From IMG/VR virus record IMGVR_UViG_3300037851_000912, positions 1-63,330 of that record: 63,330 nt of DNA; one strand, 5' to 3'. A program made the position numbers and the translations under genes. This DNA is from a virus. Under the pieces are notes generated by a model. The model made no database searches and was not told the origin of the DNA. It saw only the letters and a list, made by a program, of their open reading frames with translations. Position 1 is the first letter of the stretch. Each line of letters starts with the position of its first letter. Below are positions 3,522 to 31,517 of this stretch, piece after piece.

Positions 3522-3524
3522 CCC

Positions 3525-4241
3525 GTGCCGCGCCCGCGGAAGAAGCCAGACCGGCGGCCGAAGGTGCCGCGGGTCATGCCGGCCGCCATCCGAGAGGCGT
3601 ACGACCCGTACGAGCCCGCGGTATGGGTCGCCTCCCGGGTGCCGCGCTGGCAGCCGCTCGTCAAGCACGAGAAGTTCCGGGTCATCCTCGGGATGCTGCT
3701 CTCGGGCCGGGGACCGTGGCGGACCGCCGACTGGATCCGTGCGAACGTCCCGGCGAACGACGCGCTGGGCGTCGACAAGCTGTCGCGCCTCGCGCTGGCC
3801 CGGCGCCTGCAGCGGTTCCAGAAGGCGCTGCCCGACCGGGTCGGCATCGCCGCGACGTTCCTCGACGAGAAGTTCGTCCGGGTCGACGTCGACCTCGACG
3901 AGATCGCCGAGATCGACGGGCTGATCCGCTACCAGAAGTTCCGGCTGGGCATCCTGGGCATGAAGGAGGCCGACTTCGGCGTGCCGGTCGAACAGCAGGG
4001 CCGCGAGGTCGACCGGCTGGCGAACCTGCTCGTCCGGCGGAAGCTGCTGCTGGACGGGGTGATGAACGTGACGCAGCAGACGGTCGGGCAGCAGGTGAAC
4101 GTGGTCGTCCAGCAGTCCGAGGCCGCGTCATCGGTCGCCGGGTACCTGCGCGACAACCCCGCCGCGATCCCGAAGCTGATGAGCCTGTTCGACGACCTCG
4201 AGCCAGCGGTCGTGGTGATCGAGGAGGAGACGACGACGTGA
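3525..4241 (+). CDS. Candidate small terminase subunit
   Basis: GTG 3525. Basic N-terminus MPRPRKKPDRRPK. Lies immediately upstream of the large terminase and overlaps it (GTGA). The call rests on position only. Confidence 0.45.
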   Translation: MPRPRKKPDRRPKVPRVMPAAIREAYDPYEPAVWVASRVPRWQPLVKHEKFRVILGMLLSGRGPWRTADWIRANVPANDALGVDKLSRLALARRLQRFQKALPDRVGIAATFLDEKFVRVDVDLDEIAEIDGLIRYQKFRLGILGMKEADFGVPVEQQGREVDRLANLLVRRKLLLDGVMNVTQQTVGQQVNVVVQQSEAASSVAGYLRDNPAAIPKLMSLFDDLEPAVVVIEEETTT

Positions 4242-6025: not shown

Positions 6026-6252
6026 CCGGGCTCCGCTCGTTCAGCCGACAGCAGCTGCTTGCGATGCCGTGGGACGAGCTCGAGTCGCTGGGGCTCTGCG
6101 AGTGCGGCACGCCGCTGGCGTCGCACCCGAAGCTGCCGAAGGTTCGACCGCTGACGAGCTGGAAGGCGCAGCGGTCGATCGAGGAGGGGCTGTCGCAGAA
6201 CGCGACGAAGCACCAGAGCGCCCGGAAGCGGGCGTGGAACCGGGTCGTGTAG
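6022..6252 (+). CDS. Hypothetical protein (76 aa)
   Basis: ATG 6022 with ATGA overlap on the terminase stop. High third-position G+C. Followed directly by hairpin copy 1. Confidence 0.6.
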   Translation: MTGLRSFSRQQLLAMPWDELESLGLCECGTPLASHPKLPKVRPLTSWKAQRSIEEGLSQNATKHQSARKRAWNRVV

Positions 6253-6271
6253 TCATTCCGCACGGAATGAC
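6252..6271 (+). terminator. CATTCCGCACGGAATG hairpin element, copy 1
   Basis: gtCATTCC-GCAC-GGAATGac begins at the last base of the stop codon of 6022..6252. It is the first element of regulatory cassette A. Confidence 0.7.
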
Positions 6272-6313
6272 GCCCTGAGCCATCTGTCACGCGCCCCTGA
6301 GCCACACTTCCCC

Positions 6314-6342
6314 TTGACGCCCATGTGGCGCGATGTCAACAT
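6314..6342 (+). promoter_or_regulatory. Sigma-70-type promoter, family copy A
   Basis: TTGACG (6314-19), 17-nt spacer ending in TGT, then CAACAT (6337-42), followed by the conserved GAAGGTATGAAA. Confidence 0.65.
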
Positions 6343-6348
6343 GAAGGT

Positions 6349-6534
6349 ATGAAATCCAACGGCAAAGAGCAGGACTGCGTCCACGCGCAAGCGGTCGTCG
6401 TCTGCGGCGAACGGCGCTGCCCTCGTTGCTACGAGCTCGAGCTCGAGCGGTCCTACCGCGAACGCTCGATGCCGCGTGGCCGGGTCGTCGTCTTCCGCAA
6501 CGACCACGGGCACCAGAGCTTCCGGGTCGAGTAG
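6349..6534 (+). CDS. Small Cys-rich protein, possibly leaderless
   Basis: ATG 6349 lies 7 nt after the -10 hexamer. MKSNGKEQDCVH..CGERRCPRC. In frame with the track start at 6325. Confidence 0.5.
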   Translation: MKSNGKEQDCVHAQAVVVCGERRCPRCYELELERSYRERSMPRGRVVVFRNDHGHQSFRVE

Positions 6535-6547
6535 CCCGGCGAAAGGA

Positions 6548-6562
6548 TTGGAGGCAGAGGCG
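6548..6562 (+). promoter_or_regulatory. Start-associated motif TTGGAGGCAGAGGCG
   Basis: Abuts ATG 6563. The same 20-mer TTGGAGGCAGAGGCGATGAA occurs at 49099 and 49388. Confidence 0.8.
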
Positions 6563-6874
6563 ATGAAGGTCCGGGATCTGATTGAGGAGCTGGAGGCGTA
6601 CGACGGCGACGCCGAAGTGCGGCTGATGAGTCAGCCCTCGTGGCCGTTCGAGTACAGCATCGAGGGACTGTGGACCGTCGAGAAGGCGGAGCACAGCGGG
6701 ACCTCGTGCGAACGGTCGGAGGAGTACGACCCCGATGCCGATGACGAAGACGAGTGCTTGGCGTGCGAGGCGGACGGGTTCGAGCCCCACGAGGCCGACG
6801 GCGACGTGGTGTATCTGCTCGAGGGGTCGCAGCTCGGCTACGGGGCGAAGAAGGCGTGGGAAGGCGGCTGGTGA
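6563..6874 (+). CDS. Strongly acidic small protein (103 aa)
   Basis: ATG 6563 after the motif. Contains EEYDPDADDEDECLACEADGFEPHEADGD. High GC3. Confidence 0.7.
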   Translation: MKVRDLIEELEAYDGDAEVRLMSQPSWPFEYSIEGLWTVEKAEHSGTSCERSEEYDPDADDEDECLACEADGFEPHEADGDVVYLLEGSQLGYGAKKAWEGGW

Positions 6875-7098
6875 TGAGCGAGCTGACGAAGCTGACGACG
6901 GCCCGACGCGTCGATCGTCGACGCTGGGTCTGCGTCCTGGCGGACGACGGCGGAGTGTTCTGGGTGGGGATGCTGGTCGACGGCGAGTTCCACGCCCGCG
7001 ACCAGTACGGGACCGGGGCTGCCGGCGAGCACGCGGCTGTGGTAGCCGCCCGCATCTGGGCGGATGGCATCGTCCGCGACAAGGAGTGGACGCGATGA
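6874..7098 (+). CDS. Hypothetical protein
   Basis: ATG 6874 with ATGA overlap; GTG 6871 is also possible. Frame of track ORF 6754..7098. Confidence 0.6.
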   Translation: MSELTKLTTARRVDRRRWVCVLADDGGVFWVGMLVDGEFHARDQYGTGAAGEHAAVVAARIWADGIVRDKEWTR

Positions 7099-7322
7099 AG
7101 TGCGCGGTGAAGACGTGCATCAAGAGCGAGGCGGCGCACGCCCGCGAAGTGGAGTACATCGCGAGGACGGACGGCCCGCGGGCAGCCATCGAGTTCGAGC
7201 TGCGCCACGAGTTCGTCGAAGACGAGTGCCCGTATTGCGGCTCGACCGAGACGACCGAGCTGGTAGACGATGGGCCGCCCGAGCAGTCGATCACGATCTG
7301 CGCCGGCTGCGGCGCCGACTGA
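7095..7322 (+). CDS. Hypothetical Zn-ribbon protein
   Basis: ATG 7095 with ATGA overlap. CPYCGS ... CAGCG. Confidence 0.6.
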   Translation: MKCAVKTCIKSEAAHAREVEYIARTDGPRAAIEFELRHEFVEDECPYCGSTETTELVDDGPPEQSITICAGCGAD

Positions 7323-7334
7323 GAGGCAAAGACG

Positions 7335-7745
7335 ATGCGAGAGAGCAAGTTCTACGGCGAGTCGTGGTCGACCGAGGCGACGTGCCAGGGCTGCGAAGCG
7401 TGCGGCTTCGGGCGTGTTCGCCCGTGCCCGTCGCAATCGGACGCGTGGTGGCAGACGGCGCGAGCCGCGAGCCGCGAGGTCGACTTCGGCGTGTGGTGGC
7501 GCGAGCCGAAGGCGACCGGCGGGTACGACACGGGCTGGCGGCTGACGTGGGTGGAGGCGACCGGCGAGGTGTACCGGACGAAGGACGGCGAAGTGTTCGG
7601 CATGGGTCAGGTGGCCGACGAAGCGACGATCGAGAAGCTGCTCGAAGGCTGGGCCGACCGGATGACGACCGACGACCTCGACTGGGTGCGCGATCAGCTC
7701 GATGAGCTGTCGGCCGCGCTGTCGACGCCGCCCCGGCTGCGGTAG
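7335..7745 (+). CDS. Hypothetical protein
   Basis: ATG 7335 preceded by GAGAGGCAAAGACG, a degenerate form of the start motif. High GC3. Confidence 0.65.
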   Translation: MRESKFYGESWSTEATCQGCEACGFGRVRPCPSQSDAWWQTARAASREVDFGVWWREPKATGGYDTGWRLTWVEATGEVYRTKDGEVFGMGQVADEATIEKLLEGWADRMTTDDLDWVRDQLDELSAALSTPPRLR

Positions 7746-15190: not shown

Positions 15191-16261
15191 ATGCTCACGG
15201 CTACGCGAGGGACCATCGCGGTCCCGCGTCGCGACCCGGAACTGGCCGCACGCCTCGGCGAGTCGGTCGACTTCCCGGTCGGTGACGACCTGATGCACGC
15301 GATCGCCGGGCGGCGCGAGCGCCAGTCCGAGTCGGCGGCCATCCGCTCGCTCGCGAAGGAGATGGGGACCACCGTCGGCGACGTGATCGACGCGTTCCTC
15401 GACGGCGAGGAGATCGGGACCCAGACCGTCCGCCGGTTCCTGACGAACACCGGCCTGAAGCCGCTGTTCAGCCCCATCGTCGAAGACGGGCTTCGCCTCG
15501 GCCTGAACCGGGTCGCCGGGCTCTGGCAGAGTCTGATCGCCCGGACCGTCCGCATCGACCAGATGTCGTACGAGTACTACGAGTTCGACAACGCGACGAC
15601 GGGCGCCCAGAACGAGTTCAAGCTGAACACGATCGGGCAGGGTGCCCCGATCCCGGTCGCCCGGGTGTCCGTCTCGGGCAAGAGCTACACGCTCTACAAG
15701 ACGGGCCGCGGCATCGAGTGGACCGACGAGGCGAAGGCCGCGCCGATCGACCTCGCCGCGATGTGGTTCCAGCAGGTCGGGCTCCAGCTGGGCCTCGACT
15801 ACCATGCCGACGTCGTCGACAAGCTGCTGAACGGGTACTTCGCGGACAACAGCGACGACCCGAACGTGCTCGCCACGGCCACGGCGAACGTGTTCACGGA
15901 CGCCGACCTGTACACGGCGGCCGGGACGCTCCAGAACACGTACGGCTACACGGCCGACGTCATGCTGATGAGCCTCGCGACGAGCGTCACGATCCAGACC
16001 CTCGAGAACGGCACCGGCCAGCGCCTGTTCCCGAACGGCGTCACCGCGGCGGGCCTGCCGAGGATCCAGGTGTCGGCGTCGATGCCGGCCGACAAGATCC
16101 TGTTCGTCGACAGCGGGTTCAGCCTGGTCCGGTTCGTGTACAAGGACTTCGGGACGGAGTTCGACCGCAGCCCGCAGACGCAGGTCGAGGGCAGCTACGG
16201 CACGCAGATCGACCTCGTCGTCCCGCTGTTCAAGGACGCCCGCCTGGTGCTGGACGCCTAG
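15191..16261 (+). CDS. Major capsid protein (HK97-fold type)
   Basis: 356 aa. Position follows protease/scaffold and decoration genes. The composition looks like a structural protein. Confidence 0.7.
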   Translation: MLTATRGTIAVPRRDPELAARLGESVDFPVGDDLMHAIAGRRERQSESAAIRSLAKEMGTTVGDVIDAFLDGEEIGTQTVRRFLTNTGLKPLFSPIVEDGLRLGLNRVAGLWQSLIARTVRIDQMSYEYYEFDNATTGAQNEFKLNTIGQGAPIPVARVSVSGKSYTLYKTGRGIEWTDEAKAAPIDLAAMWFQQVGLQLGLDYHADVVDKLLNGYFADNSDDPNVLATATANVFTDADLYTAAGTLQNTYGYTADVMLMSLATSVTIQTLENGTGQRLFPNGVTAAGLPRIQVSASMPADKILFVDSGFSLVRFVYKDFGTEFDRSPQTQVEGSYGTQIDLVVPLFKDARLVLDA

Positions 16262-16955: not shown

Positions 16956-17363
16956 ATGAAGATCGCGATGGCCCGTGAGGGGAAAGGGTTCTTCGGCGAC
17001 GGCATCGAGCTGTCGTGGCCGGTCGGAGGCGTCCGAGAGGTCGTCGAGGTCAGCGATGACCTGATGGACTGGCCCGGGCGCCTGCGCGACCGCTTCACGG
17101 CTGGGTCGATCGTCAAGGTCGACCTCGCCGTGAACACGACCCTCGTGCCCGTCACGAAGCCCGTGGTCATGCGGGGCGGTAGCCCGGAGGCGATGGCGAA
17201 GATGGCCGAGCCGCCGGGCTACGTGCCCGCTGCAGCCGAGGAGGAGGCCGAGGAGGCACCCGAGACGGCGAGCGGTGAGGGCGATGTCGAGTTCGCTGGG
17301 ACGGAGCCGGAGCCGGAGCCGCCGGCGCCCAAGCCCGCGCCTCGTCGACGGAGTGCTCGATGA
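16956..17363 (+). CDS. Hypothetical protein with an acidic/Pro-rich tail
   Basis: ATG 16956 after GAGGAG. High GC3. Confidence 0.6.
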   Translation: MKIAMAREGKGFFGDGIELSWPVGGVREVVEVSDDLMDWPGRLRDRFTAGSIVKVDLAVNTTLVPVTKPVVMRGGSPEAMAKMAEPPGYVPAAAEEEAEEAPETASGEGDVEFAGTEPEPEPPAPKPAPRRRSAR

Positions 17364-17476
17364 GTGGAGTCGACGGCCACCTGGGAGTCAAGGGCAGCCT
17401 GAAGCCCCGCGTGATCCGAGCCAACCCGTCCCGATGGGAACGGTTCCTGATGAAGCTGAGGAGTGTGTTCGGATGA
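17360..17476 (+). CDS. Micro-ORF (38 aa) coupled at both ends
   Basis: MSGVDGHLGVKGSLKPRVIRANPSRWERFLMKLRSVFG. ATGA overlaps at both 17360-63 and 17473-76. Below the length cutoff of the ORF track. Confidence 0.4.
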   Translation: MSGVDGHLGVKGSLKPRVIRANPSRWERFLMKLRSVFG

Positions 17477-18030
17477 CCAGGATCGGAGCGAGCTTCCGCA
17501 TCCCGTTCACGCGGGGTCGTTTGCTCTGGCTGCCGGAGGATCCCGGCGAGGCCCTGCGGCCAGGGCGGCTGCTGTTCAACGGCTGGCTGGGTGCCCGCCT
17601 GCTCGATCGCCACGGCTGTGAGATCGACCGATTCGAGCTCGGGTCGGGCGTCGTGACCGACGCCGGCGTGGCGTACATGGTCGACGACTTCGACAACGCG
17701 AGCGGCGGCGCCGACATCAGCCTGTTCAACTACCACGACAGCGGGACGGGCACCGTCGCTGCCGCCGTCGGCGACACCGATCTCGGAACTGCCGCTGGCC
17801 CGACGACCCGGGCGACCGGGACGCGGAGCCAGCCGGCGGCGAACCAGTACCGGACCGTGGGCACAATCACGTACACCGGGACTCTCGCCATCACGGAGTG
17901 GGGCCTGTTCACGGACGCAACCCGCGGCTCCGATACCATGTGGGACCGCCGGGTGTTCACCGCGATCAACGTCGTCAACAACGACAGCATCGAGTTCACG
18001 TACACGCTGACGGTCTCGAGCGGCGGCTAG
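17473..18030 (+). CDS. Hypothetical structural protein (185 aa)
   Basis: ATG 17473 in track ORF 17275..18030. Contains TLAITEWGLFTD, which resembles fibre-collar proteins. Confidence 0.55.
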   Translation: MTRIGASFRIPFTRGRLLWLPEDPGEALRPGRLLFNGWLGARLLDRHGCEIDRFELGSGVVTDAGVAYMVDDFDNASGGADISLFNYHDSGTGTVAAAVGDTDLGTAAGPTTRATGTRSQPAANQYRTVGTITYTGTLAITEWGLFTDATRGSDTMWDRRVFTAINVVNNDSIEFTYTLTVSSGG

Positions 18031-18045
18031 TAGCGGCGGCGGGGA

Positions 18046-18072
18046 GGCGGCATTCCGCACGGAATGACCGCC
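18046..18072 (+). terminator. Hairpin element copy 4 (extended stem)
   Basis: GGCGGCATTCC-GCAC-GGAATGaCCGCC, with further CGGCGGC/GCCGCCG pairing outside the core. Confidence 0.7.
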
Positions 18073-18091
18073 AGCCGCCGAGGAGGTCGCC

Positions 18092-18655
18092 ATGAGCAGG
18101 GTCGTCCTGCTGAACAGCGGCGGCATCGACTCTCGGGTCGCGGCCGCCATGCTCGTCGCGTCCGGGATGGAACCACACTCGCTGACGCTGGACTGGAACC
18201 CGGTCGCGAGAGACCGGGTGCTGGCCGCAGCTCAGACCACGGCCGACGCGTACTGCGCGAGCCACCTCGTGTTCGCGTACCCGGTCGACTGGATGCTCCA
18301 CAGCGACAAGCTCGGGCGCCCGCGGATGCCGTACACGGTGCACGTTGCCGTCGCCCTCGGGGCGCAGTACGCGCTCCACGTCGACACGCTCTACGTGGCG
18401 ACCGGAGGGCGCAAGGTGTCGGTCCGAAATCCGGCGACGTGGCACGAGAACATGCAGTCCGCGCTGAACCAGAGCCGGCTGTCTCCGGAGCTGATTGTCC
18501 TGACGCCCGTGTTCGAGCTCGGCGACTCTGCCGTGACCGCGAAGGCTGCCGAGCTCGGCGTCGACCTTACGACCACCTGGTCGTGCTCGCTGGATCCGGC
18601 GTGCGGGACCTGCGTGTCATGCCTGCGCCGTGAGCGCGAAGGAGTCCCATCGTGA
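18092..18655 (+). CDS. queC: QueC-like PP-loop ATPase (7-cyano-7-deazaguanine synthase family), short form of 187 aa
   Basis: VVLLNSGGIDSR is the PP-loop. The C-terminal Zn cluster is TWSCSLDPACGTCVSCLRR. By eye it is collinear with B. subtilis QueC. Confidence 0.7.
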   Translation: MSRVVLLNSGGIDSRVAAAMLVASGMEPHSLTLDWNPVARDRVLAAAQTTADAYCASHLVFAYPVDWMLHSDKLGRPRMPYTVHVAVALGAQYALHVDTLYVATGGRKVSVRNPATWHENMQSALNQSRLSPELIVLTPVFELGDSAVTAKAAELGVDLTTTWSCSLDPACGTCVSCLRREREGVPS

Positions 18656-19275
18656 AATCCGGTACTGCCCAGTTCGCCCTCGTCGCGATGTTCGTCGGAC
18701 TGCACCTGTTCGCGCCGATCACGTCGAACAAGATCCTGCTGGTCGCCGGCCTGACGTTCACGTCCGGGGCGCTCCTGATCGGGGCGAGCTACGCGGTGCT
18801 CGACATCCTGAACGACTGGCAGGGCCGGGAGGTGGCCCGCCAGACCGTGAAGGCGGCGCTGATCGTGCGGACGGTGTTCTTCGTCGTCGTCGTGCCGGTC
18901 ATCATCCTGCTGCCGGCGGCCCGAGAGGTCGAGGGCTTCGAGGACTTCATGACGTCGAGCGTGCGGCTGTTCGCCGCTGGTCTGGCGTCGCTGTTCGTCA
19001 GTTCGTACCTGATCAGCATCCCGGTGTTCACGTGGCTGCGCGAGCGGATGCAGGGACGGTGGTTCGCCCTGCGCTACCTGACGACGAACCTGCCGGTGAT
19101 CGTGTCGGCGACGGTCGTCTACGTCACGCTCGGCTTCGCGTTCGTCGAGGACGTCGACCTCGGGCGGCTGTACTTCGGGCAGACGGTCGCCCGCATCATC
19201 TTCGGCGCCGCCATCGTTCCGATCGTGTGGGGCGTGCGCCAGTACCTGCGCCGCTACGGCGAGCTGTACCGCTGA
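18652..19275 (+). CDS. yhhQ: YhhQ/DUF165-like queuosine-precursor transporter
   Basis: GTG 18652 with GTGA overlap. Polytopic membrane protein. ITSNKILLVAG...ASYAVLDILNDWQGRE matches the family N-terminal block. Confidence 0.65.
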   Translation: MKSGTAQFALVAMFVGLHLFAPITSNKILLVAGLTFTSGALLIGASYAVLDILNDWQGREVARQTVKAALIVRTVFFVVVVPVIILLPAAREVEGFEDFMTSSVRLFAAGLASLFVSSYLISIPVFTWLRERMQGRWFALRYLTTNLPVIVSATVVYVTLGFAFVEDVDLGRLYFGQTVARIIFGAAIVPIVWGVRQYLRRYGELYR

Positions 19276-19287
19276 TGAGGGAGACAC

Positions 19288-21288
19288 GTGGCGAACCGAC
19301 TCGGGGAGCTGCCGCTCAGGCGTAGCCGTTTCGCGAAGCACTTCGCGACGGATGAGGACGGCGTGTTCATCGCCGAGATTGGCGTTGCCCCGCGGCACTT
19401 CCAGAAGTCGGACGACTCGTGGGACGACCTGTCGAACCTCGTCCAGTCCGTCCCGGGCGGCTGGGCTGCTACGGCGAAGGACGTTCGCTTCGGGGTCGAG
19501 AACGGCTGGCTGACCGTCACGTACAAGGGCCGCTCGCTGCAGATGCGGCCGACGGCGGTCGGCATGGTCGACCGGACCGCGCCCGCGACCCGCTGGCGGA
19601 AGCTGGCCGACGCCAGCTATGCCAACGTCAGTCGGTCCGCGAACGAGATCACCGTGACCGACATCTTCCCGCAGACCGACCTGCGGCTGACGCTGAGCGA
19701 CGAGGCGCTGACGAAGGCGTTCACGATCCGCCAGCGCCCGAACCTGCCGGACCCGGTGTCGCTGGGCTGGGACCCCGACAAGACGTTCCTCGTCATCGTC
19801 TGGGACGTGCAGCTCCCGAGCGGGGCTGTCGTCCGCGACACCGACACGCTCGAGCAGGTCGACAACGGCTACGCGGGCCGCAACGACCTCGTCGTCGAGA
19901 CTTCGAGCGGCGACCCGGTCGTGTACTTCAAGGCGGGCACGGCGGAGTCGGCCATCGGGCGGACACACCCGGTCTGGTACGTGTCGGCCGGGGCGAACGT
20001 GCCGTTCGGCGAGGCGGTTCCCTACGCGAAGGCCGCCATCGCTCGCTACCCGCTCGTCATCGACCCGACGACCACGATCACTCGGCCGACGGCCCCAACC
20101 ACGGCGGCATTCGCGTACTTGTCGGTGGACGGCGGAGGCGGTTCGACCGGGAGCACCGTGGTGTGGTATGCCGGGCGTGCCGCTCGGCAGGTCGACCCGG
20201 ACAGCAAAGTGCAGGGCGACGAATACATGGTCGCCGATAAGAAGATCGGTGCCCTGAGGTTCGACCTCAGGGCGGTCTCGGTGAACGCGACCTCTGCCAA
20301 CCTGTTCTTTCGTCGGGTGGCTGGCTATGAGTACAGCTGCGACAACGCAACCGAGCAGACAATCACGCTGGAGAGCTACGACTCTGACTTCGGGGAAACA
20401 TGGAGCGTCGCCGAAGCCGAACAGACGACCGGCCTGACGTTTGAGGACAGCAAGTCCTACACGACGAACACCGAGGGCACCCAGTATTTCTCGATTGACC
20501 CGACACGTCTCGCGTCACATTTCGGCGACTACGCCTGCTTCCGCTTCAAGGGCAGCCTAGAGCCAAATCTGGCCGACACGAACGAGATCATTTCAGACCA
20601 CGCCAACACGTGGATCGAAGCGACGTACACGACGTTCACCGCCCCGTTCCTAGCTGACCTGCGCACGACGTACCCTGCTCCCAGCACGAGCTGCAACGTG
20701 AGCTTCCCGACGTCGACCCAAGCTGGCGACCTCGTCATCGTCACGGCGCAGACCGCCGCCGAGTCGTGCGACAACACGCCGAGCGGATGGGCGAGGTGGC
20801 TGTACCTCGTGCCGTACAGCAACGTCTCGCTGGCTGTGTTCGCCAAGTTCGTCACCGCCGGAGACATCGCCACGGGCTACGTGACGTTGTCGAAGACCGG
20901 GTCTTCGACAACGTGGTTCTGCACGGCCATGAGGGTCCTTGGGGCTGACGCCGACCCGCTCGACGCTAGCGACATCGACGGTGCCGCCAGCGGCGACACG
21001 GTGCAGCTCGACATCACGACCGTCACGAACTACGCGCTCGTGATCGGCATCATCGCCCAGAGCGGGACTAGCGTGGCGAGCACGATGTCGAACCTCGCCG
21101 ACTACTACGTCGGCCTGTCGCAGCGCCCGCAGGTTCGGCAGGCCATGCAGTCCACGGCCGGGTCGTTCAGCAGTATTGCGGACGCCGCCTCGACGATGAA
21201 CATCGTCGCCGCCTTGGTCGCCATCCGGCCGGCGGCGACCGGGCCGGTTGCGCTGACGATGCGCTACGTGCCCGGCGGACAGACCTGA
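19288..21288 (+). CDS. Large virion-associated protein (666 aa) with a DNRLRE-like middle domain
   Basis: GTG 19288. IGALRFDLRAVSVNATSANLFF. The C-terminal domain is paralogous to the N-terminal domain of the next gene. Confidence 0.7.
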   Translation: MANRLGELPLRRSRFAKHFATDEDGVFIAEIGVAPRHFQKSDDSWDDLSNLVQSVPGGWAATAKDVRFGVENGWLTVTYKGRSLQMRPTAVGMVDRTAPATRWRKLADASYANVSRSANEITVTDIFPQTDLRLTLSDEALTKAFTIRQRPNLPDPVSLGWDPDKTFLVIVWDVQLPSGAVVRDTDTLEQVDNGYAGRNDLVVETSSGDPVVYFKAGTAESAIGRTHPVWYVSAGANVPFGEAVPYAKAAIARYPLVIDPTTTITRPTAPTTAAFAYLSVDGGGGSTGSTVVWYAGRAARQVDPDSKVQGDEYMVADKKIGALRFDLRAVSVNATSANLFFRRVAGYEYSCDNATEQTITLESYDSDFGETWSVAEAEQTTGLTFEDSKSYTTNTEGTQYFSIDPTRLASHFGDYACFRFKGSLEPNLADTNEIISDHANTWIEATYTTFTAPFLADLRTTYPAPSTSCNVSFPTSTQAGDLVIVTAQTAAESCDNTPSGWARWLYLVPYSNVSLAVFAKFVTAGDIATGYVTLSKTGSSTTWFCTAMRVLGADADPLDASDIDGAASGDTVQLDITTVTNYALVIGIIAQSGTSVASTMSNLADYYVGLSQRPQVRQAMQSTAGSFSSIADAASTMNIVAALVAIRPAATGPVALTMRYVPGGQT

Positions 21289-24197
21289 TGGCTATCTCTG
21301 ACGGCACCGCAGGAGCGTGGGTCGCCACCACGACCCGGAACCCGACCGTTATTCTGCCGTCGCACTCGGCCGGGGACATGCTGCTCGTCAGGGTCGGCTG
21401 GAAGTCCTCGACCCCGACGACCGACGTCGCCGTCTGCAACACGTCCGGCTGGGCGAAGCTCGGCCAGTACTACGACGGCGGCGGTGTGTCCTCCAACGGC
21501 GGCGGCGGCGTCCTCGTCGCGGTCTTCTGGAAGGTCGCCACCAGCGCGTCCGAGACGAACCCGACCGTCGAGTTCGACGACGCGACCGCCCCGACGCCGG
21601 GCGCGTACTGCGCCGTCACCTACACGAAGGGCGCCTCCGAGACGTGGGTCGACCCGGTAGGCGCGAGCGGCGCCATCGCGGCGGCCACGTCCTACTCGGC
21701 GACGATGAGCACGCACGTCAGCGCGACCGCTGGCGACATGCTCGACGCCTTCGCCGTCACGAACGACAACACGACGCTCACCGTCCCGACCGTCTCGCAG
21801 ACCGGCGTCACCTTCGACACGGTGACGGAGTACCCGGCGACCGCGCTGTCGTCCGCGACCTCGAACGACATCAGCGCGGACGGCTGTAACCGACTCGCCA
21901 CGTCCGGTACGTCGAGCGCGGCGGCAGTCGTCTCGGGCACGAACAGCGTCGCGGACCCCGGCGCGGCATGGGTGACCCGGCTGCGGGTCAAGAATGGCAT
22001 CTCGCTGACGGCCGGCCTGACGCCCAGCGGCGCACGGCCGGTGATGAAGGGCAAGAAGGCGCTGACCGGAGCGTTGTCGAGCTTGGCCGGTGCCGTGACG
22101 AAGAAGTCGACGATGGCGCTCGCCGGGGCGCTGTCCGGGCTTGCCGGCGCGCTGTCTCGGACGAGCCAGCGGTCCGTGTCGCTGTCGGGGACCGTCTCGT
22201 TCAGCGGGGCCTCGGCGAGAGCCCTGCGGGCGCTGCGAGAGTTCACCGCCGACCTGACGCCGAGCGTCACGTTCCTGGCCGAGAAGATCGAGTCGCTGGC
22301 AGAAGTGTTCGACGCCAGCCTGAGCTTCGTCACGGACGCCTCGCGGAAGACCGCGAGGTCGCTGGTCGCGACGTTGACGCTGGCCGGGGCCATCGCGGCG
22401 CTGCGGAGGATCCCGCAGGCGCTGACGGCCTCGCTGAGCTTCACCGGCGAGTGGGCCAAGAAGCCGATGAAGACGCTCGCCGCCGCGCTGCCGTTCCTGA
22501 CCGGAGCGTTGACGAAGAAGGTGACCCGCGTGTTCACGGCCGGGCTGACCTCGGCCGGGAGCGTGACCAAGGCGATGCTCAGGTCTGCCGCCGGCGGCGC
22601 GTCCGTCGTGTTCCTGCCCACGGCGACGCGGCTGAAGCGCGTCGGGCAGGTGCTGACGGCCAGCCTGTCGTTCACGGGAACATGGGCGAAGACGCCGCGC
22701 AAGGTGCTTGCCGCGACGCTGTCGCCGGCGGCCGCGCTGCAGCGGTTCGTCCAGACGTCGGCCGACCGGATGACGGCGACGCTGACGCCGGCCGGGGCTC
22801 TGATCCGCAAGACGTTCCGGTCGCTGGCCGCCGACCTGACGAGCTCGGCGTCGATGACCGCCGAGCGGGTCGCCACGCAGCTGCAGGAGGCGTTCACAGC
22901 CACGCTGACGTTCGTCGGGACGTGGAGCCGGCTCTCGACCCTGCACCGGGCGTTCACGGCCACCCAGGGCTTCGTGGGGGCGGTCTGGAAGCGGGCTCCG
23001 CGGGACCTGTCGGGCTCCGTCGCGTTCAGCGGGGTCGTCGGCCGGACGACGAAGAAGTGGTTGACCGCGACGCAGGGCTTCGCCGGGTCCGTCGCGACGT
23101 TCGTCCGCAAGCGGTTCGCCGCTGCGCTGACCCTCGGTGGCGCGCTGGTCCGGAGCGGGGCAAAGTCCGAGGCGTTCGCCGCGACGGTGTCGTTCGTCGG
23201 GGCGGCGAAGGCCAGAGCCGGCAAGACGTTCAGCGCGGAGATGACGTTCTCGGGTCAGACGCTCCTGCGCTCGGCGTTCCGGCGGGCCTGGTCGGTCACG
23301 CTGACGCCGGCCGGAAGCATCGTCCGGTCGGTGCGCCGGGCGCTCGCCGCGACCCTTGCGCCCACCGGCTCGATCCGGCTGGCGACGCGCCGGGCGCTGG
23401 ACGCGATGGTCGAGTTCCAGACCACGCTGCGCTTCCGCAGGCCGCTGCATCTCGACGGGACGCTCTCGTTCGTGACGACGCTGACGCGCTGGTCGACGCT
23501 GCACCGAGCGTTCACCGCGATGCTGGCGCCGGCCGGGAGCATCGTCCGGAGGACGTTCCGGGCGCTGACGGCCGCCCTGTCGCCGAGCGGCGCCATCGCC
23601 AGCCTGAAGCACTCGGGCGGCGTGTGGCTGACCGCCTCGCTCACGTTCGCCGGGTCGGCGGTCCGGAAGACGCAGCACCGGATGACCGCGGCCTCGCTGT
23701 CGCCGAGCGCCGTGTTCAGCCGGATGAGGATCCGTCACGCGGTGATGACGGCGACGCTCACGTTCTCGGGCGCCATCCGGAAGCGCGGAATGAAGGTGCT
23801 CGCGGCGGCGGCCGCGTTCAGCGGTGCCGTCCAGCGGCGCACCCGCAAGCTGCTCGAGGGAACGCTGATCACGAACGCGACGTTCTGGACGCAGGGCTCA
23901 TTGAAGCAGGTGTTCACCGCGACGCTGGGCCTGGCCGGTTCGATCGCCAAGCGGTCGACGCGCACCGTCGCAGGATCCGTCGCCTTCGCCGGGACGATTA
24001 CGAGGAAGGGCTTCCGCAGCTTCGCCGCTGCGTTGGCACCGGCCGGCACGTTCGTCAAGCAGGCGACGCTGCAGTTCCTCGGCTCGCTGGCCGGGGTATA
24101 TGCTCGCGTCGTTGACGCGAAGCCGACGGCAATCGTTCGCGTGGCGCCGAAGGCGGTCGTGATGGACGACGGGACGAGTGCGAAGGTGGAGGAGTGA
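21288..24197 (+). CDS. Giant repeat protein (969 aa): globular N-domain plus about 36 degenerate basic repeats of 18-22 aa
   Basis: ATG 21288 (TGATG overlap). From about aa 236 the repeats follow (F/L)(T/A)AxLx(F/P)xGxxx(R/K)(R/K)xx(R/K)x, for example LTASLSFTGEWAKKPMKT and LTASLSFTGTWAKTPRKV. Confidence 0.8.
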   Translation: MAISDGTAGAWVATTTRNPTVILPSHSAGDMLLVRVGWKSSTPTTDVAVCNTSGWAKLGQYYDGGGVSSNGGGGVLVAVFWKVATSASETNPTVEFDDATAPTPGAYCAVTYTKGASETWVDPVGASGAIAAATSYSATMSTHVSATAGDMLDAFAVTNDNTTLTVPTVSQTGVTFDTVTEYPATALSSATSNDISADGCNRLATSGTSSAAAVVSGTNSVADPGAAWVTRLRVKNGISLTAGLTPSGARPVMKGKKALTGALSSLAGAVTKKSTMALAGALSGLAGALSRTSQRSVSLSGTVSFSGASARALRALREFTADLTPSVTFLAEKIESLAEVFDASLSFVTDASRKTARSLVATLTLAGAIAALRRIPQALTASLSFTGEWAKKPMKTLAAALPFLTGALTKKVTRVFTAGLTSAGSVTKAMLRSAAGGASVVFLPTATRLKRVGQVLTASLSFTGTWAKTPRKVLAATLSPAAALQRFVQTSADRMTATLTPAGALIRKTFRSLAADLTSSASMTAERVATQLQEAFTATLTFVGTWSRLSTLHRAFTATQGFVGAVWKRAPRDLSGSVAFSGVVGRTTKKWLTATQGFAGSVATFVRKRFAAALTLGGALVRSGAKSEAFAATVSFVGAAKARAGKTFSAEMTFSGQTLLRSAFRRAWSVTLTPAGSIVRSVRRALAATLAPTGSIRLATRRALDAMVEFQTTLRFRRPLHLDGTLSFVTTLTRWSTLHRAFTAMLAPAGSIVRRTFRALTAALSPSGAIASLKHSGGVWLTASLTFAGSAVRKTQHRMTAASLSPSAVFSRMRIRHAVMTATLTFSGAIRKRGMKVLAAAAAFSGAVQRRTRKLLEGTLITNATFWTQGSLKQVFTATLGLAGSIAKRSTRTVAGSVAFAGTITRKGFRSFAAALAPAGTFVKQATLQFLGSLAGVYARVVDAKPTAIVRVAPKAVVMDDGTSAKVEE

Positions 24198-26078: not shown

Positions 26079-26287
26079 TGAGAGTCCGATGGACGGGGAA
26101 GCGCGTCGGCTGGGACGAGGCGCACATCCCGGGGTTCGGCGACGTGAGGGTCGGGGACGTGATCGAGGTCGACGACGCCGCTGGCGCCGAGATGATCGCC
26201 GTCACCGAGGGGAAGTCAGACTGGGAGCTCGTGAAGGACGCTCCCGCGAAGGCCAAGACGGCCGAGGAGGTGACGGATGGGCGCTGA
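26078..26287 (+). CDS. Hypothetical small protein
   Basis: ATG 26078 (TGATG overlap). Confidence 0.5.
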   Translation: MRVRWTGKRVGWDEAHIPGFGDVRVGDVIEVDDAAGAEMIAVTEGKSDWELVKDAPAKAKTAEEVTDGR

Positions 26288-27311
26288 GCATCTGATGTTC
26301 GCGAAGGAGACCGTGTTCGGGACCTGGGTGGCCGCGACCACGGCGCTCCCGGTCGAGTCGGTGTCGCTCGGCGGCGAGATGCCGCTGATCGAGAACCGCG
26401 ACACCGGCGGCGGCAAGGCGGCCCGGGCGCCGCGAGCCGGGGCCGTCGCGGTCACGGGCGAGATCGCGACGCACATCTACGGGAAGACGCTGCCGGCGCT
26501 CCTTAAGGGCGTCTACGGCACGAAAGCAAAGACGGCCGACGGGACCGGGTTTATCAACAAACTGCTCCCGAACGACGACACGGCGCACGAGTCGTTCTCG
26601 ATGCAGAAGCGGTACAGCGCCGCCGTCGCCGAGTCATTCAAGGGCGTGCGCATCGCCGGCTACAAGGTCGAAGCGTCGGCCGGCGAGCTGGCGAAACTCA
26701 CGGTCCGCACCGAGGGCCAGGACTTCGGCGTGCCGGGCGGCACGTGGACCGACGGCACGTCCGCGCCGGCCGTCCAGTCGCCCTCGTACGCCGCTGGCCA
26801 GACCGACCCGATGGTGTTCTACGAGGGCAGCATCCAGATCGGCGGCACGATCGCGCTCACCTCGGGCGAGATCGTGGTCACCGGCGGCACGCAGCGCCAT
26901 GCGATCGACAACATCAGCTTCGATATCGACTACGGGCTGATCACGGACGACTACGAGGTCTACAAGGACAGCCGCGTCCGGAACAGCATCGACGACGGTG
27001 CGCGGACGATCGAGATCGGCTTCGAGCCGAACTGGGCGACGGTCGGCACCGAGTTCCTGCTCGCGTGGAAGACGCAGGCGACCGCCGTCATCGAGCTGAT
27101 CTTCACGAGCGCGAACACGTACGACACGGCGAAGCCGTACGTCTACAAGTGGACGTTCCCGAGCGTGCGCTACTCGGCAGCCGCGGCCCCGGAGCTCAGC
27201 TCCGAGTACGCGTTGAAGCGCACCAGCGTCGCTGGGCAGGCGTTCTACAACTCGACGGCGACGAGCGACCACGGCCTCGTCATCAAGTGCGACGCCGACC
27301 TGACCCTGTAG
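26277..27311 (+). CDS. Major tail (tube) protein
   Basis: 344 aa. RBS GAGGAGG. Lies upstream of the frameshifting chaperone and the tape measure gene. No sheath gene is present. Confidence 0.6.
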   Translation: MGAEHLMFAKETVFGTWVAATTALPVESVSLGGEMPLIENRDTGGGKAARAPRAGAVAVTGEIATHIYGKTLPALLKGVYGTKAKTADGTGFINKLLPNDDTAHESFSMQKRYSAAVAESFKGVRIAGYKVEASAGELAKLTVRTEGQDFGVPGGTWTDGTSAPAVQSPSYAAGQTDPMVFYEGSIQIGGTIALTSGEIVVTGGTQRHAIDNISFDIDYGLITDDYEVYKDSRVRNSIDDGARTIEIGFEPNWATVGTEFLLAWKTQATAVIELIFTSANTYDTAKPYVYKWTFPSVRYSAAAAPELSSEYALKRTSVAGQAFYNSTATSDHGLVIKCDADLTL

Positions 27312-28333: not shown

Positions 28334-28575
28334 CGAAGGTCAAGCCGCGGACCGCGTTCAGCTCGGAGGCCGCCTGGCTCGAGCATCTGGAGGCGTTTCA
28401 GATCCTGAGGCGGTCGAGTCTGGTGCTTGAGACGCATTGGACGTTCGCCGAGCTGGACGACCAGGCGGCATGGGACATCGAGGGGTTGGAGCACTTCCTG
28501 AGAATCCGAGCCGGCGTACGACGAGAAAGGCAGGCCGTCGAGGAGATGCGACGGAGGAGTAGGGGTCGACGGTGA
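27953..28575 (+). CDS. Tail assembly chaperone -1 frameshift fusion (G-T-like): 27953..28294 joined to 28294..28575
   Basis: After slippage the reading is GKLEDFVRAVESGRVAKVKPRTAF..., matching track ORF 28138..28575. Its stop overlaps the tape measure GTG. Confidence 0.7.
28288..28294 (+). promoter_or_regulatory. -1 programmed frameshift slippery heptamer G GGA AAC
   Basis: An X XXY YYZ motif in the correct zero frame (codons GGA 28289, AAC 28292). The -1 frame stays open to 28575. Confidence 0.75.
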
Positions 28576-31517
28576 GTCGAGAGCAGAGCCTGATCGAGAT
28601 CCTGAGCACGGCGCAGACCGCCGGGATCGACGCCGCCATCGCGGCGATCGACCGCGAGAACGCGTCGCTGTCCCGCTTCTCGGCCACGGCCGGCTCTGTC
28701 AACGTCGACCGCCTGAGCCAGAGCTCCGCGTCGGCCGTCCAGTCGCTGTCAGCGGTCGGCGAGGAAGCCGGTAAGACCGGCGCCGCGCTGGAGCAGCTGT
28801 CGAGCGACCCGACGCGCATCCTGATCGTCGGCGAGACCGAGCAGGCGCAGATGGCGATCGCCCAGGTCGAGGCCGACCTCGACCGGGTGGAGGACGTCAC
28901 GCGAGTCGTCGTCGACGCCGACAACAGCTCCGCGATGTCGGCGCTCGCCAGTACCGAGTCCAAGCTGCAGGAGATCCAGCAGCCGGTCGTCATCCCGGTC
29001 GATGCGAACGTGTCGTCGGCGCAGAGCGCCGTCGGCGGGCTGCAGTCGTCGCTGAACGGCCTCGGTTCCTCGGGCGGTGTGGCCGGCCGGGCGCTGGCCG
29101 GGCTTGGCGGCGCGGCTATGGCCTCGAGCAGCGGGGTGCAGGGCCTCGCCAGCTCCGCGGTCGGGATGACGTCGACGCTCGGTCCGGCTGGCATCGCCAT
29201 CGCTGGGGCGGCGGTCGCCATCGGCGCCGTCGGCGCGGCGTCGCTCGGGGCTGCCGGCGAGATGGAGCGGTACGAGACGCAGCTCGGCGTCCTGCTCGGC
29301 TCGACCGAGCGGGCGCAGGAGCGCATCGCCGAGCTGGTGGAGTTTGCGGCGAAGACGCCGTTCGAGATCCCGGAGGTCGTGCGGGCGTCGAAGGTGCTGC
29401 AGACGTTCGGCGGCGACCTGCTCGCGACCGGCGAGAGCCTGCGCTTCGTCGGCGACGTCGCTGCCGGGACCGGAACCCCGTTCGAGGAGATGGCGCTCCT
29501 GCTCGGCCGCATCAAGACGAGCCTCGAGTCGGGCTTGGTCCCGAGCGAACAGATCATGCGGCTGCAGGCGATGGGTGCCCTGACGGTCGATGGCCGCCAG
29601 AAGATCATGGACTTCGCCGAAGCGGTCCGGAACGGCACGGCCGACGGCGCCGAGGGCTTCGCGCTGCTGCAGGACCAGATGAGCATCTTCAGCGGCATGA
29701 TGGTCGCGCAGTCCGCGACGTTCGAGGGCAAGATGTCGAACCTCGCCGACGCCATCGGCGGGGTGTTCCGCTCGATCGGGAAACTGCTGCTCCCGGCCGC
29801 GAAGGCGTTCGTCGACATCCTGATCCCGATCGTGAACGGGGTGAGCAAGTTCATCGACGGGCTGAGCGGCACGACGAAGGCGACCGGCCCGCTGAACACG
29901 ATCATGAACAACGCGGTGCGCATCTGGAGCTCGCTGTTCGGCATCGTCGGCGACCTCGTGGGCTGGCTGGGGCCGCGCCTCGCACCGGCGTTCACCATCG
30001 TGGGCACCGCGGTGAACGCCGTCGTCACGGTCTGGGCCACGCTCAGCGACGCGTTCATGTGGTTCATCGACACGATCGCGCCAGCGGTCGGAACGGTGAT
30101 GGGCGCCATCGGTAGCGCGTTCGACACGTTCCAGCGGACGATCGGGGACCTTGCCGCCACCGTGATCGGGGTCGTCGCGACGGTCGCCGAGGCCGCTGCC
30201 GCCATCCCGGGCCCGTGGCAGGAGGGCGCCACGGCGGTCGCCACGACGCTGAACGCGATGAAGACCGAGGTCGACGCGTGGGGCGAGAGCACCGTGGCGC
30301 GCCTCGCCGCGACCGGGCAGGACGGCCCGGCGGTGCTCGGGGCCGAGCTGGCGTCCGGGGCCGATGTGGTGCAAGCCGGCGCCGAGTCGATGTCCGACCC
30401 GATCGCCGGTGCCGTGCAGGGCGCGCAGGACGACGCCAAGGCGATTGCCAGGGCGACGCCCGGCGAGATCGCGAAGTCGCTGGCCGAGGGCCGCGCGACG
30501 GTGACGCAGGCCGGGTCCGTCCTCGCTGACGCCATCACGAACGCCGTCGACCCGGCGAAGGAGCGGGCGCGCATCATCGGCGTCCTGACCGGGAACGCCA
30601 TCGGCGATGGGCTGACCAGCACGAACGCGGCGACGCGAGCTGCCGCGCAGAAGCAGTACGACGCGCTCGTGAAGGACCTCGACGACCCGAACCTGTCGCC
30701 GGCAGCTCGGTGGGCGAAGGAAGGTCTGAAGATGGGCGCCGACCTCGCGGTCGCCCTGAACAGCACGAACCCGGAGGTGTACGCCGCCGGCGACTACGTC
30801 AAGACGACGCTCGAGGAGCGCCTGTTCGCGCTCGAGAAGGGCGTCCCGCAGATCGCGGTCGACACAGGCACGGCGTACGCCGACGCGCTGGACAGCACGA
30901 AGGAGGACGTCAAGCGGGCTGCCGACCTCGTGAACCAGCGTGCCCGTCTCGGCTGGCCGGACGCGACGGTGAACAGCTGGGGTCGCAACGTCGGCGAGGA
31001 GTTCGCGGACGGCCTCGAGTCGGCGAAAGAGTCGATCAGGATCGCCGCCCTGCGGGCGCTGGCCTGGGGCGCCGCCGCCTTCCGGGGCGCGTCGCCGCCG
31101 AAGATCGGGCCGTTCCACCTGATTGACAAGTACGGCGAGAACATCATCGAGCAGTTCGCGATCGGCATGGAGCGCAGGTCTCCGTGGCTGCGCGACCGGG
31201 CGATCAAGATGCTCGAGGACGCCGGCGCCGCCTTCCGAATCGACGACTGGCTGATCGGGGACAACAACGTGCCCGTCCGGATCGGCGGGCCGAAGCCCGC
31301 AACGCCCACCGGCGGAGGGACGGCTGGCGGGTACGCCGGGACGGTGTCGAACGCGTACTTCAACGTCGCCGGGTCGTACATCACGATTGAGACGGTCGAA
31401 GTGAACCTGCCGTCGACGTGGCGAGGCACGCCGCAGGACACGCAGGACCTCGCCGAGTCGCTGGCGCGTGACATCCGGCTGCAGACCGTCGCGTACGCCA
31501 CGTCCGGGGTCGGCTGA
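28572..31517 (+). CDS. Tape measure protein (981 aa)
   Basis: Long Ala/Gly-rich helical protein directly after the chaperone pair. Confidence 0.85.
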   Translation: MSREQSLIEILSTAQTAGIDAAIAAIDRENASLSRFSATAGSVNVDRLSQSSASAVQSLSAVGEEAGKTGAALEQLSSDPTRILIVGETEQAQMAIAQVEADLDRVEDVTRVVVDADNSSAMSALASTESKLQEIQQPVVIPVDANVSSAQSAVGGLQSSLNGLGSSGGVAGRALAGLGGAAMASSSGVQGLASSAVGMTSTLGPAGIAIAGAAVAIGAVGAASLGAAGEMERYETQLGVLLGSTERAQERIAELVEFAAKTPFEIPEVVRASKVLQTFGGDLLATGESLRFVGDVAAGTGTPFEEMALLLGRIKTSLESGLVPSEQIMRLQAMGALTVDGRQKIMDFAEAVRNGTADGAEGFALLQDQMSIFSGMMVAQSATFEGKMSNLADAIGGVFRSIGKLLLPAAKAFVDILIPIVNGVSKFIDGLSGTTKATGPLNTIMNNAVRIWSSLFGIVGDLVGWLGPRLAPAFTIVGTAVNAVVTVWATLSDAFMWFIDTIAPAVGTVMGAIGSAFDTFQRTIGDLAATVIGVVATVAEAAAAIPGPWQEGATAVATTLNAMKTEVDAWGESTVARLAATGQDGPAVLGAELASGADVVQAGAESMSDPIAGAVQGAQDDAKAIARATPGEIAKSLAEGRATVTQAGSVLADAITNAVDPAKERARIIGVLTGNAIGDGLTSTNAATRAAAQKQYDALVKDLDDPNLSPAARWAKEGLKMGADLAVALNSTNPEVYAAGDYVKTTLEERLFALEKGVPQIAVDTGTAYADALDSTKEDVKRAADLVNQRARLGWPDATVNSWGRNVGEEFADGLESAKESIRIAALRALAWGAAAFRGASPPKIGPFHLIDKYGENIIEQFAIGMERRSPWLRDRAIKMLEDAGAAFRIDDWLIGDNNVPVRIGGPKPATPTGGGTAGGYAGTVSNAYFNVAGSYITIETVEVNLPSTWRGTPQDTQDLAESLARDIRLQTVAYATSGVG

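Follow-up and report, generated by a model that had tools for sequence, protein, structure and literature searches.

A 969-amino-acid (aa) protein encoded at 21288..24197 of the viral record IMGVR_UViG_3300037851_000912 (referred to here as the window, 63,330 nt, which is the whole contig) consists for most of its length of short, basic repeats, and its gene lies among the virion genes of a tailed-phage genome that is transcribed almost entirely from the + strand. This raises the question as to what such an array could be for, and whether the protein belongs to the virus particle at all. An earlier note on this DNA had described the product as a virion-module protein and proposed a solenoid or fibre that contacts a polyanionic surface. 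By its sequence, the protein is modular, with an acidic N-terminal domain (N-domain) followed by the basic array, and the 18-residue repeat defines an undescribed family that is large in metagenomes and absent from the sequenced phages in GenBank. We favour, tentatively and with slightly less than an even chance of being right, the reading that an uncultivated, high-GC tailed phage uses this protein as an accessory fibre or adhesin on the virion surface, where it would act as a polycationic rod on anionic polymers.

The array that the earlier note parsed by hand, some 700 aa in about 36 degenerate units, is recovered by independent means. BLOSUM62 autocorrelation of aa 236–935 peaks at a lag of 18 (z=10.3 relative to 300 shuffles) and again at lags of 38, 56 and 74. 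With an iterated hidden Markov model (HMM), 30 units can be anchored from aa 240 to 925, mostly spaced 18–21 residues apart, and six intervals are of double length (36–44 aa) and hold one extra degenerate unit each, which brings the total to ~36. Unit length has a mode of 18 and a range of 16–24, in good agreement with the 18–22 aa given before. A second unit HMM, built only from other proteins (75 units of P0038, P0041, P0043, P0048 and P0049), finds 17 units in the window array at >=3 bits, compared with a mean of 0.035 and a maximum of 1 in 200 shuffles and with none in the N-domain, and shows that the window units follow the consensus pattern of the family. Lysines and arginines number 93 and acidic residues 19 in the 700 aa (13.3% vs 2.7%), and the array has a pI of 12.0 and a net charge of +74. 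The description as strongly cationic with few acidic residues needs one minor correction, in that the array is not fully uniform: aa 297–340 is among the few stretches with several acidic residues, together with a short predicted helix. Tandem Repeats Finder reports no DNA-level repeat within the array save one trivial 31-nt match, which rules out a recent DNA-level expansion, as the earlier note had also concluded. The array stops 34 aa short of the C-terminus, and since the C-terminal tails across the repeat family are short and unconserved, there is no globular distal domain or knob.

In a window with a GC content of 69%, long spurious open reading frames (ORFs) overlap the gene on both strands. 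The G+C content at third codon positions (GC3) of the 969-codon frame is 0.94 overall and 0.89–0.97 per 300-nt block; in the rival ORFs 21968..24115 (+) and 21264..23738 (-) the high-GC position falls at codon position 1, which marks them as high-GC artefacts. The ~38 homologs open with the same MAISxGTAGxW N-terminus, and since homologs from unrelated samples conserve the protein from residue 1, the start at 21288 is well supported. The ATG overlaps the stop codon of the upstream gene (ATGA), and the final 20 nt overlap the next gene. An assembly artefact, already doubted in the earlier note, or a frame artefact is excluded by GC3 throughout the gene and by homologs on contigs from other samples and sources. 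The product has a mass of 100 kDa and a pI of 11.5. Its N-terminus has no obvious signal peptide on inspection by eye, without a predictor, which argues against a secreted host-cell protein.

The supposition that this ancient repeat belongs to no named family also stands: it matches no Pfam, NCBIfam or annotated PHROG (also at E<=1) entry and, as single sequence or profile, no PDB sequence, and a Pfam DUF3150 match to the protein in the E<=1 scan is spurious. The 75 units from other proteins give the consensus L-[TA]-[AG]-x-L-S-F-[TAV]-G-[SA]-phi-x-[RK]-R-T-x-[RK]-A, with Gly9 conserved in 100%, Leu5 in 92% and Phe7 in 85% of units, hydrophobic residues alternating at positions 1/3/5/7 and basic residues at 13/14/17. 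An exhaustive profile search of 1.84 billion cluster representatives (clusters at 50% identity) matches 2,589 proteins at E<=1e-3, 1,548 at <=1e-10 and 438 at <=1e-30, so that the family comprises at least 2,589 protein clusters; tblastn finds none in the 50,697 phages of GenBank. The window protein itself has no megablast or tblastn match in this phage set (low-complexity filter on), and P0038, one of the proteins with a basic array, matches it only via its Laminin_G_3 region. The unannotated phrog_28946, a 118-position profile, matches the P0043 array (aa 805–874, E=3e-10), and the repeat is thereby present, without a label, in at least one PHROG family. We found no description of an 18-residue basic repeat in the literature on head and neck fibres, beta-spirals and receptor-binding protein repeats.

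Among 152 representatives of the family the median length is 904 aa, and the array starts at about residue 290 and leaves a median of 77 residues between its end and the C-terminus. Within units, the median content of K+R is 10.6% and that of D+E 0%; the basic charge is a conserved trait of the family. The pre-array regions of the representatives fall into at least 51 unrelated clusters, and the N-domain of the window protein is found in none of them. Laminin_G_3 is the only recurrent Pfam partner of the basic array in the 20 representatives that were scanned directly. The window protein resembles the family in its ~18-residue units, strong basicity and an array that runs nearly to the C-terminus, and blastp aligns its array at 28–32% identity over 400–700 aa with proteins of four other contigs (L001, L004, L005 and L006). 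The 18-mer arrays of other proteins follow different N-terminal regions and are far more regular; the window copy is a degenerate family member, newly joined to an N-domain that otherwise bears other arrays. A scan of GTDB genomes for a degenerate DNA pattern (4 x LxFxG at 54-nt spacing) was too unspecific, with 3 genuine cases (L018, L074 and L093) among the at least 120 matches listed; all three are phage-like DNA on short contigs of metagenome-assembled genomes (MAGs).

The N-domain (pI 4.45) tells a complementary story. By phmmer, residues 1–235 recur at the N-terminus of ~38 metagenomic proteins (E 1e-42 to 1e-131), and one further protein carries the domain internally (family members P0002–P0037, P0040, P0042 and P0044). 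Identity among these relatives is 41–87%, with 31 invariant columns that include W11, H26, R35, K39, E89, D150, D160, R231 and R233, and the domain ends with a conserved ...AWVTRLRV motif; the window protein matches over the full ~235 aa and has the invariant residues. Past residue ~235 the relatives diverge completely. Laminin_G_3, beta-helix and CarboxypepD_reg domains occur in their distal parts, and 38 of the 39 bear a strongly periodic short-repeat array of their own, with a best period of 14–28 residues in 36 of the 38 (z 5–22). The sequences of these arrays have nothing in common and their composition is neutral or acidic, and the window protein is the sole family member with the basic 18-mer. 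One anchor domain thus carries a whole set of undescribed short-repeat modules, a build with a conserved N-domain and interchangeable distal parts that looks typical of phage host-contact proteins. Motifs seen in the relatives' arrays include TGIxSxEAFGTATxLRG (P0002), LGLLDxxxALYAPTLxP (P0003 and P0008) and DAGxGADTA (P0004).

AlphaFold2 (AF2) predicts the N-domain as an all-beta fold with a predicted local distance difference test score (pLDDT) of 91 and a predicted template modelling score (pTM) of 0.90. A Foldseek search of the PDB with this model gives nothing significant, the top matches being jelly-roll coat proteins (E 6e-3, template modelling (TM) score 0.2–0.3). Against BFVD there are 62 matches at E<=1e-3, the best with E 1.4e-10 and a TM score of 0.71, and the highest TM score being 0.75. 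Many are annotated as 'minor tail protein' of mycobacteriophages, others come from Synechococcus, Rhizobium and Clavibacter phages, and one is the N-terminus of a tail-enzyme-like GDPD protein. Among the proteins that share the fold are those of the actinobacteriophages Byougenkin, Gaia, Tweety and Hawkeye (Mycobacterium phages) and one of Synechococcus phage S-CBWM1, with E 1e-10 to 1e-5 and TM scores of 0.55–0.75 at an identity of only 11–20%; unlike the window protein, none of these 'minor tail proteins' was found by tblastn to carry the basic repeat. The predicted model would place the N-domain in the phage 'minor tail protein' fold class, a likeness of fold that implies neither function nor location; such labels are largely positional annotations.

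The array is predicted with much lower confidence (monomer model, pLDDT 49.5, pTM 0.36). Its best stretch (pLDDT 60–74) has a 4-residue strand at unit positions 5–8 every 18 residues, with single bridging residues between strands, a solenoid-like signature. Foldseek against the PDB gives 11 matches, none significant (E>4, TM<=0.23) and all beta-solenoids, among them CsgA, VacA, EtpA, GlmU, CBA120 TSP1 and an antifreeze protein. The unit pattern, with hydrophobics at 1/3/5/7, an invariant Gly and a second half rich in Thr, Lys and Arg, implies a probable strand-turn-strand unit, and together with the AF2 output it indicates beta structure with a presumed 18-residue period. For 36 units the computed length is ~17 nm as a monomeric solenoid or up to ~45 nm as an oligomeric fibre. 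The solenoid or fibre of the earlier note is therefore upheld in part: the 18-residue strand period and the modular build agree with it, whereas the low-confidence model and the non-significant Foldseek matches do not establish the fold.

Does the array nevertheless correspond to a known fibre or repeat class? A close parallel in layout is the triple beta-spiral, whose repeats of ~15–20 aa are made up of a strand with alternating hydrophobics, a turn at Gly/Pro, another strand and an exposed loop of variable sequence. Like the shafts of the adenovirus fibre, reovirus sigma1 and PRD1 P5, the array consists of short tandem strand-turn-strand repeats with alternating hydrophobics, and a long thin viral attachment fibre anchored by its N-terminal part is also what we propose here. 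However, the unit is 18 aa rather than the 15–16 of the spiral, the Gly stands at position 9 after four alternating hydrophobics, the second half is dominated by Lys, Arg and Thr instead of hydrophobic core positions, and the array has no C-terminal knob, so that it falls outside this class; there is no PDB sequence match to the adenovirus, reovirus or PRD1 fibres and no fold match to any PDB chain. For the triple beta-spiral, van Raaij 1999 is cited in PMC12796354.

Beta-solenoid adhesins (curli CsgA, TpsA/FHA-type EtpA, the VacA passenger, phage tailspike beta-helices) share units of 18–23 aa with a strand-turn-strand pattern and have an extracellular adhesive role, and they are the only folds that AF2 and Foldseek link with the array, non-significantly; a pI of 12 and a one-sided hydrophobic stripe would be atypical for them, and the protein has no Pfam Beta_helix, Curlin_rpt or Fil_haemagg match. 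Individual members of this group were rejected in turn: the parallel beta-helix tailspike (PF13229, PF05048, PbH1) for lack of a Pfam match and a CBA120 TSP1 Foldseek E of ~8–10; the left-handed beta-helix, defined by the hexad [LIV]-G-x4 with 18 residues per turn, for a lag-6 autocorrelation of z=3.1 compared with 10.3 at lag 18, no Hexapep match and a non-significant GlmU match; and the curli repeat (S-x5-Q-x-G-x-G-N-x-A-x3-Q) for lack of a Pfam match and a CsgA match of E=5.1 and TM 0.07–0.10. A Laminin_G_3/ConA-like adhesin was discarded in the absence of PF13385 from the window protein, although that domain is present in many N-domain and array relatives, and a Hoc-type decoration protein for want of Ig, fn3 or Big matches in Pfam. 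Accessory head and neck fibres (phi29 gp8.5, T4 Hoc, fibritin/whiskers, and the filaments of 7-7-1 and phiCbK) have genes beside capsid or neck genes and act in reversible first contact, the same role that we propose. In build they differ, gp8.5 being a helix-turn-helix supercoil, Hoc a set of Ig domains and fibritin a coiled coil; none bears the 18-mer, and the window protein has no Ig or coiled-coil signal in Pfam or AF2. The head fibre genes of 7-7-1 are still unidentified (PMC12796354), which precludes a sequence comparison. By period, register, Pfam and PDB, then, the array matches no well-characterised fibre or repeat family; such a match was one of the outcomes that the earlier note had named as refuting its idea.

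Every genomic context examined is phage DNA. In six of them (the window, L001, L004, L006, L128 and the P0063 contig), spanning siphovirus-like and podovirus-like genomes, the capsid genes are on one side of the array gene and the neck/tail genes on the other. In L001 it precedes DUF6093, HK97-gp10-like, tail tube and tape measure genes, and in the podovirus-like L006 the order runs from an SU10 portal to the array protein, a 107-aa protein and the SU10 adaptor. An N-domain homolog in L003 is likewise placed between capsid and neck/tail genes, following the capsid gene and a Laminin_G_3+beta-helix protein. The placement seen by the earlier note, between the capsid gene and the neck/tail-completion, tail-tube and tape-measure genes and not with the adhesins after the tape measure, is thus correct for the window. 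Calling the product a virion-module protein is justified by this position only in part, as the genes immediately upstream are QueC-like and Vut_1/YhhQ-like and belong to a block common to L004. Elsewhere, the array gene of the podovirus-like L005 follows the adaptor, the relatives in L002 and L127 have no recognisable capsid neighbours, and the L018 array gene is beside a prohead protease. The N-domain homolog P0008 (L130) and the L074 array gene, which is just upstream of the terminase, each stand at the end of a gene block that is distant from capsid genes. Downstream of the L074 terminase ORF and basic-repeat protein, a 1518-aa ORF (3149–7705) combines portal domains (P23-45 barrel, Mu-type), a histidine phosphatase and MuF with a LAGLIDADG/Hom_end homing-endonuclease region that may be an intein.

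How could such a protein work? As an accessory fibre, it would dock onto the particle through its acidic, beta-sandwich-like N-domain (aa 1–235), a putative lineage-specific adaptor; the usual logic is that the virion-proximal part is conserved within a lineage and the distal part exchanged, hence this assignment. The ~36 strand-Gly-turn-strand repeats of 18 residues would stack into an elongated, beta-rich rod, possibly a beta-solenoid of ~17 nm or an oligomeric fibre of up to ~45 nm, and display ladders of Lys and Arg from unit positions 13, 14 and 17 along its length. Such ladders could mediate weak, multivalent electrostatic adhesion of low specificity to lipopolysaccharide, capsule, teichoic acids or extracellular DNA (eDNA) and help with reversible first contact, while specific recognition might come from the lectin- and carbohydrate-binding module proteins downstream of the tape measure. 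We infer the rod fold, its oligomeric state, the presence in the virion, the attachment site and the polyanionic ligand; for the attachment site, gene order suggests the head or neck, and fold relatives suggest the tail. That Laminin_G_3, beta-helix and CarboxypepD_reg domains turn up together with the family argues for an extracellular role. Of the ligands, teichoic acid would require the host to be Gram-positive; the relatives assigned to a bin, few in number, come from proteobacterial MAGs.

Several observations weigh against an accessory fibre of this kind. No cultured phage carries the repeat (50,697 GenBank phages, tblastn), and the genes directly upstream, for QueC and Vut_1, are non-structural. 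The four-gene block common to L004, whose capsid, neck and tube genes have no BLAST match to those of the window, could be an accessory cassette, and the gene position is not universal, with the L005, L002/L127, L130 and L074 relatives lying elsewhere. The AF2 model of the array is of low confidence, stacked like charges in a solenoid are energetically awkward, and the distal knob of classical fibres is missing. Finally, the charge is not needed by the N-domain family in general, since its other arrays are neutral or acidic. A more ambitious version of the idea, which we regard as rather doubtful, holds that the array represents an unrecognised class of polycationic beta-solenoid or fibre without a PDB counterpart, an 'electrostatic velcro' on the heads or necks of thousands of uncultivated phage lineages, a generic adhesin that would mediate first contact with anionic envelopes, capsules, eDNA of biofilms or mucus without the need for a receptor.

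The same N-domain data can also be explained if the array is simply a structural shaft or spacer, a rigid rod that sets the length or reach of a fibre in which the N-domain, or else a partner (for example the 666-aa protein encoded upstream), is the functional part; the Lys and Arg residues would then meet a need of the fold or of solubility, for example against amyloid-like edge aggregation, and not form a ligand surface. We consider this unlikely, even though it survives best among the alternatives. That one N-domain bears arrays of other sequence, period (mostly 14–28) and charge suggests that the rod matters and not its chemistry, the basic arrays of P0038 and P0043 flank Laminin_G_3 domains like linkers, and no binding domain lies distal to the window array. 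However, a median D+E of 0% and fixed basic positions in at least 152 diverse proteins exceed what solubility would lead one to expect, and it is the array that stays conserved while the region ahead of it changes among at least 51 unrelated ones, which suggests that the array itself has a function.

That the fold relatives of the N-domain are mostly 'minor tail proteins', together with the N-terminus of the tail-enzyme-like GDPD protein, would fit a conventional tail fibre (baseplate or side fibre) that is encoded upstream of the neck genes and attached at the tail tip, and the block-end positions of P0008 and the L074 array gene are of a kind often seen for tail-fibre genes. This seems quite unlikely to us, because the window already has two large adhesins after the tape measure, the capsid-neck placement recurs in six array contexts of both siphovirus-like and podovirus-like type, and the tail labels are largely a matter of gene position.

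The non-structural neighbours, which we regard as context and not as a working part of the fibre, deserve separate attention. In blastp comparisons of the window with L004, the QueC-like proteins are 57%, the Vut_1-like proteins 84% and the arrays ~32% identical, the N-terminal 280 aa of the 666-aa protein are 55% identical to a 753-aa L004 protein, only weak matches are seen for the tape measure and the 1085-aa protein, and none at all by BLAST for the proteins of the capsid, neck and tube. The trio of QueC, Vut_1 and 666-like genes is found at 18092–21288 in the window, 6623–10001 in L004 and 1609–6089 in L129. Since the cassette proteins match L004 while the capsid, neck and tube proteins do not, the sequence comparison suggests that the block is a mobile cassette that has entered the gap between capsid and neck genes. 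The linkage is lineage-specific: L129 has another repeat array fused to its 666-like protein and lacks an array gene of its own after it, and QueC and Vut_1 are missing from the surroundings of most array genes elsewhere (L001, L006, L128, P0063 contig). The 666-aa protein has 13 homologs, a conserved N-terminal half, a variable C-terminus and no Pfam or PHROG match; P0068, 73% identical to it, has a region (aa 440–1098) that runs into a different short-repeat array (GSxTADAxVxR…). By eye, motifs at aa ~468–660 of the 666-aa protein resemble the N-domain (…AGDLVIV…PSGW…AVFAKFVT…); homology of its C-terminal domain to the N-domain was rejected, hhalign giving a non-significant E=0.31.

These data bear on the idea that the array protein is a late, non-virion moron product of the QueC-Vut_1-666aa cassette that acts inside the cell or at its envelope, either as a DNA- or RNA-binding polycation tied to 7-deazaguanine DNA modification or as an envelope-modifying or exclusion factor. 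The cassette proteins and the array are indeed the main matches between the window and L004, the trio recurs in L129, and a polypeptide of pI 12 would bind nucleic acid. Nevertheless, the QueC/Vut_1 linkage is lineage-specific, the repeat family co-occurs with Laminin_G_3 lectin domains of extracellular type, the N-domain fold matches virion tail proteins, and no DNA-binding domain is detected in the protein by Pfam, all of which leaves a moron decidedly unlikely. An internal capsid or ejected protein, its array bound to packaged DNA and its N-domain anchored to the inner capsid or portal, is the least probable alternative and would be a real surprise: the net charge of +74, the nearby head genes with a portal-MuF-ADP-ribosyltransferase fusion typical of ejected cargo, and the adjoining adaptor gene in the podovirus-like L005 and L006, where ejection-protein genes can occur, all fit, but relatives carry lectin, beta-helix and CarboxypepD_reg domains, which would be of use only on the outside of the particle, the unit pattern of alternating hydrophobics and Gly points to a folded rod of beta structure and not to a histone-like or disordered DNA condenser, and the fold of the N-domain belongs to the class seen in tail proteins.

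Phage fibres and adhesins of modular build are familiar; the 18-mer repeat is undescribed, and yet its clusters, at least 2,589 in number, extend over very different types of tailed-phage genome. If the array does form a polycationic rod, as the accessory-fibre reading supposes, this would be a new structural solution for viral attachment fibres, and charge-based adhesion of low specificity could affect host range, retention in biofilm or mucus, and aggregation of phage particles. The repeat profile could annotate thousands of large 'hypothetical' phage proteins, and the swapping of N-domains and arrays gives clear domain boundaries for engineering or structural work.

The gene is embedded in a late operon in which genes abut or overlap around it (Table 1), with no terminator or promoter signal above background. 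The phage is remote from anything sequenced: megablast gives no match in the 50,697 GenBank phages, and the best identity of its capsid protein to that set is 34%. The window offers neither lysis genes nor any other clue to the type of host.

Table 1 Features of the window in and around the array gene (- in coordinates denotes a range).
Feature	Coordinates	Strand	Basis or remark
Array gene, 969-aa protein	21288..24197	+	translation, ORF table; complete, no internal stops
N-domain, aa 1-235, acidic all-beta	21288..21992	+	phmmer boundaries, AF2
Basic repeat array, ~36 degenerate units, aa 240-935	22005..24092	+	autocorrelation, HMM
C-terminal non-repeat tail, aa 936-969 (GVYARVV...KVEE)	24093..24194	+	tail comparison
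Portal (phrog_3753)-MuF-like-ADP-ribosyltransferase exotoxin (PF03496) fusion, 999 aa	9692-12691		
545-aa and 141-aa genes			between portal fusion and capsid gene
Major capsid protein	15191-16261		
195-aa and 135-aa genes			after capsid gene
Less clearly assigned stretch	17363-18092		between 135-aa gene and QueC
QueC-like PP-loop ATPase	18092-18655	+	Pfam
Vut_1/YhhQ-like transporter (preQ0/queuosine-precursor family)	18652-19275	+	Pfam
666-aa gene, translationally coupled to array gene	19288..21288	+	ORF table
phrog_1084 protein and 167-aa gene			downstream of array gene
Neck1 / Phage_tail_S-type completion protein	to 25543		
Tail tube	26277-27311		
Tape measure	28572-31517		
Two large adhesin-type proteins			after tape measure; Laminin_G_3+fn3 (1085-aa, has Laminin_G_3) and Ig+CBM_4_9

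In the less clearly assigned stretch, the + strand ORF 17275..18030 probably starts internally, possibly at an ATG near 17475, with a GC3 under the 0.85 cut-off, and an antisense ORF (17730–18005) is probably an artefact. Elsewhere in the window, Ku (PF02735) and an ATP-dependent DNA ligase (40642–41454 and 54424–55470) make up a complete non-homologous end joining pair, a SbcC/Rad50-like ATPase is encoded at 45208–47193, and three proteins have ParB_N domains (2754–3521, 52767–54221 and 60584–61354). The contig start truncates a DegT/DnrJ/EryC1-type aminotransferase gene, of which a fragment is left at 6–443, and close to the other end, at 61351–61764, there is a Polysacc_synt_C/cupin-like ORF. 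Glycosyltransferases stand beside homologs in L003 (a 987-aa glycosyltransferase/methyltransferase/tetratricopeptide repeat protein) and L129 (GT4); together with the sugar-modification genes of the window, they hint at possible glycosylation of virions or DNA in this group.

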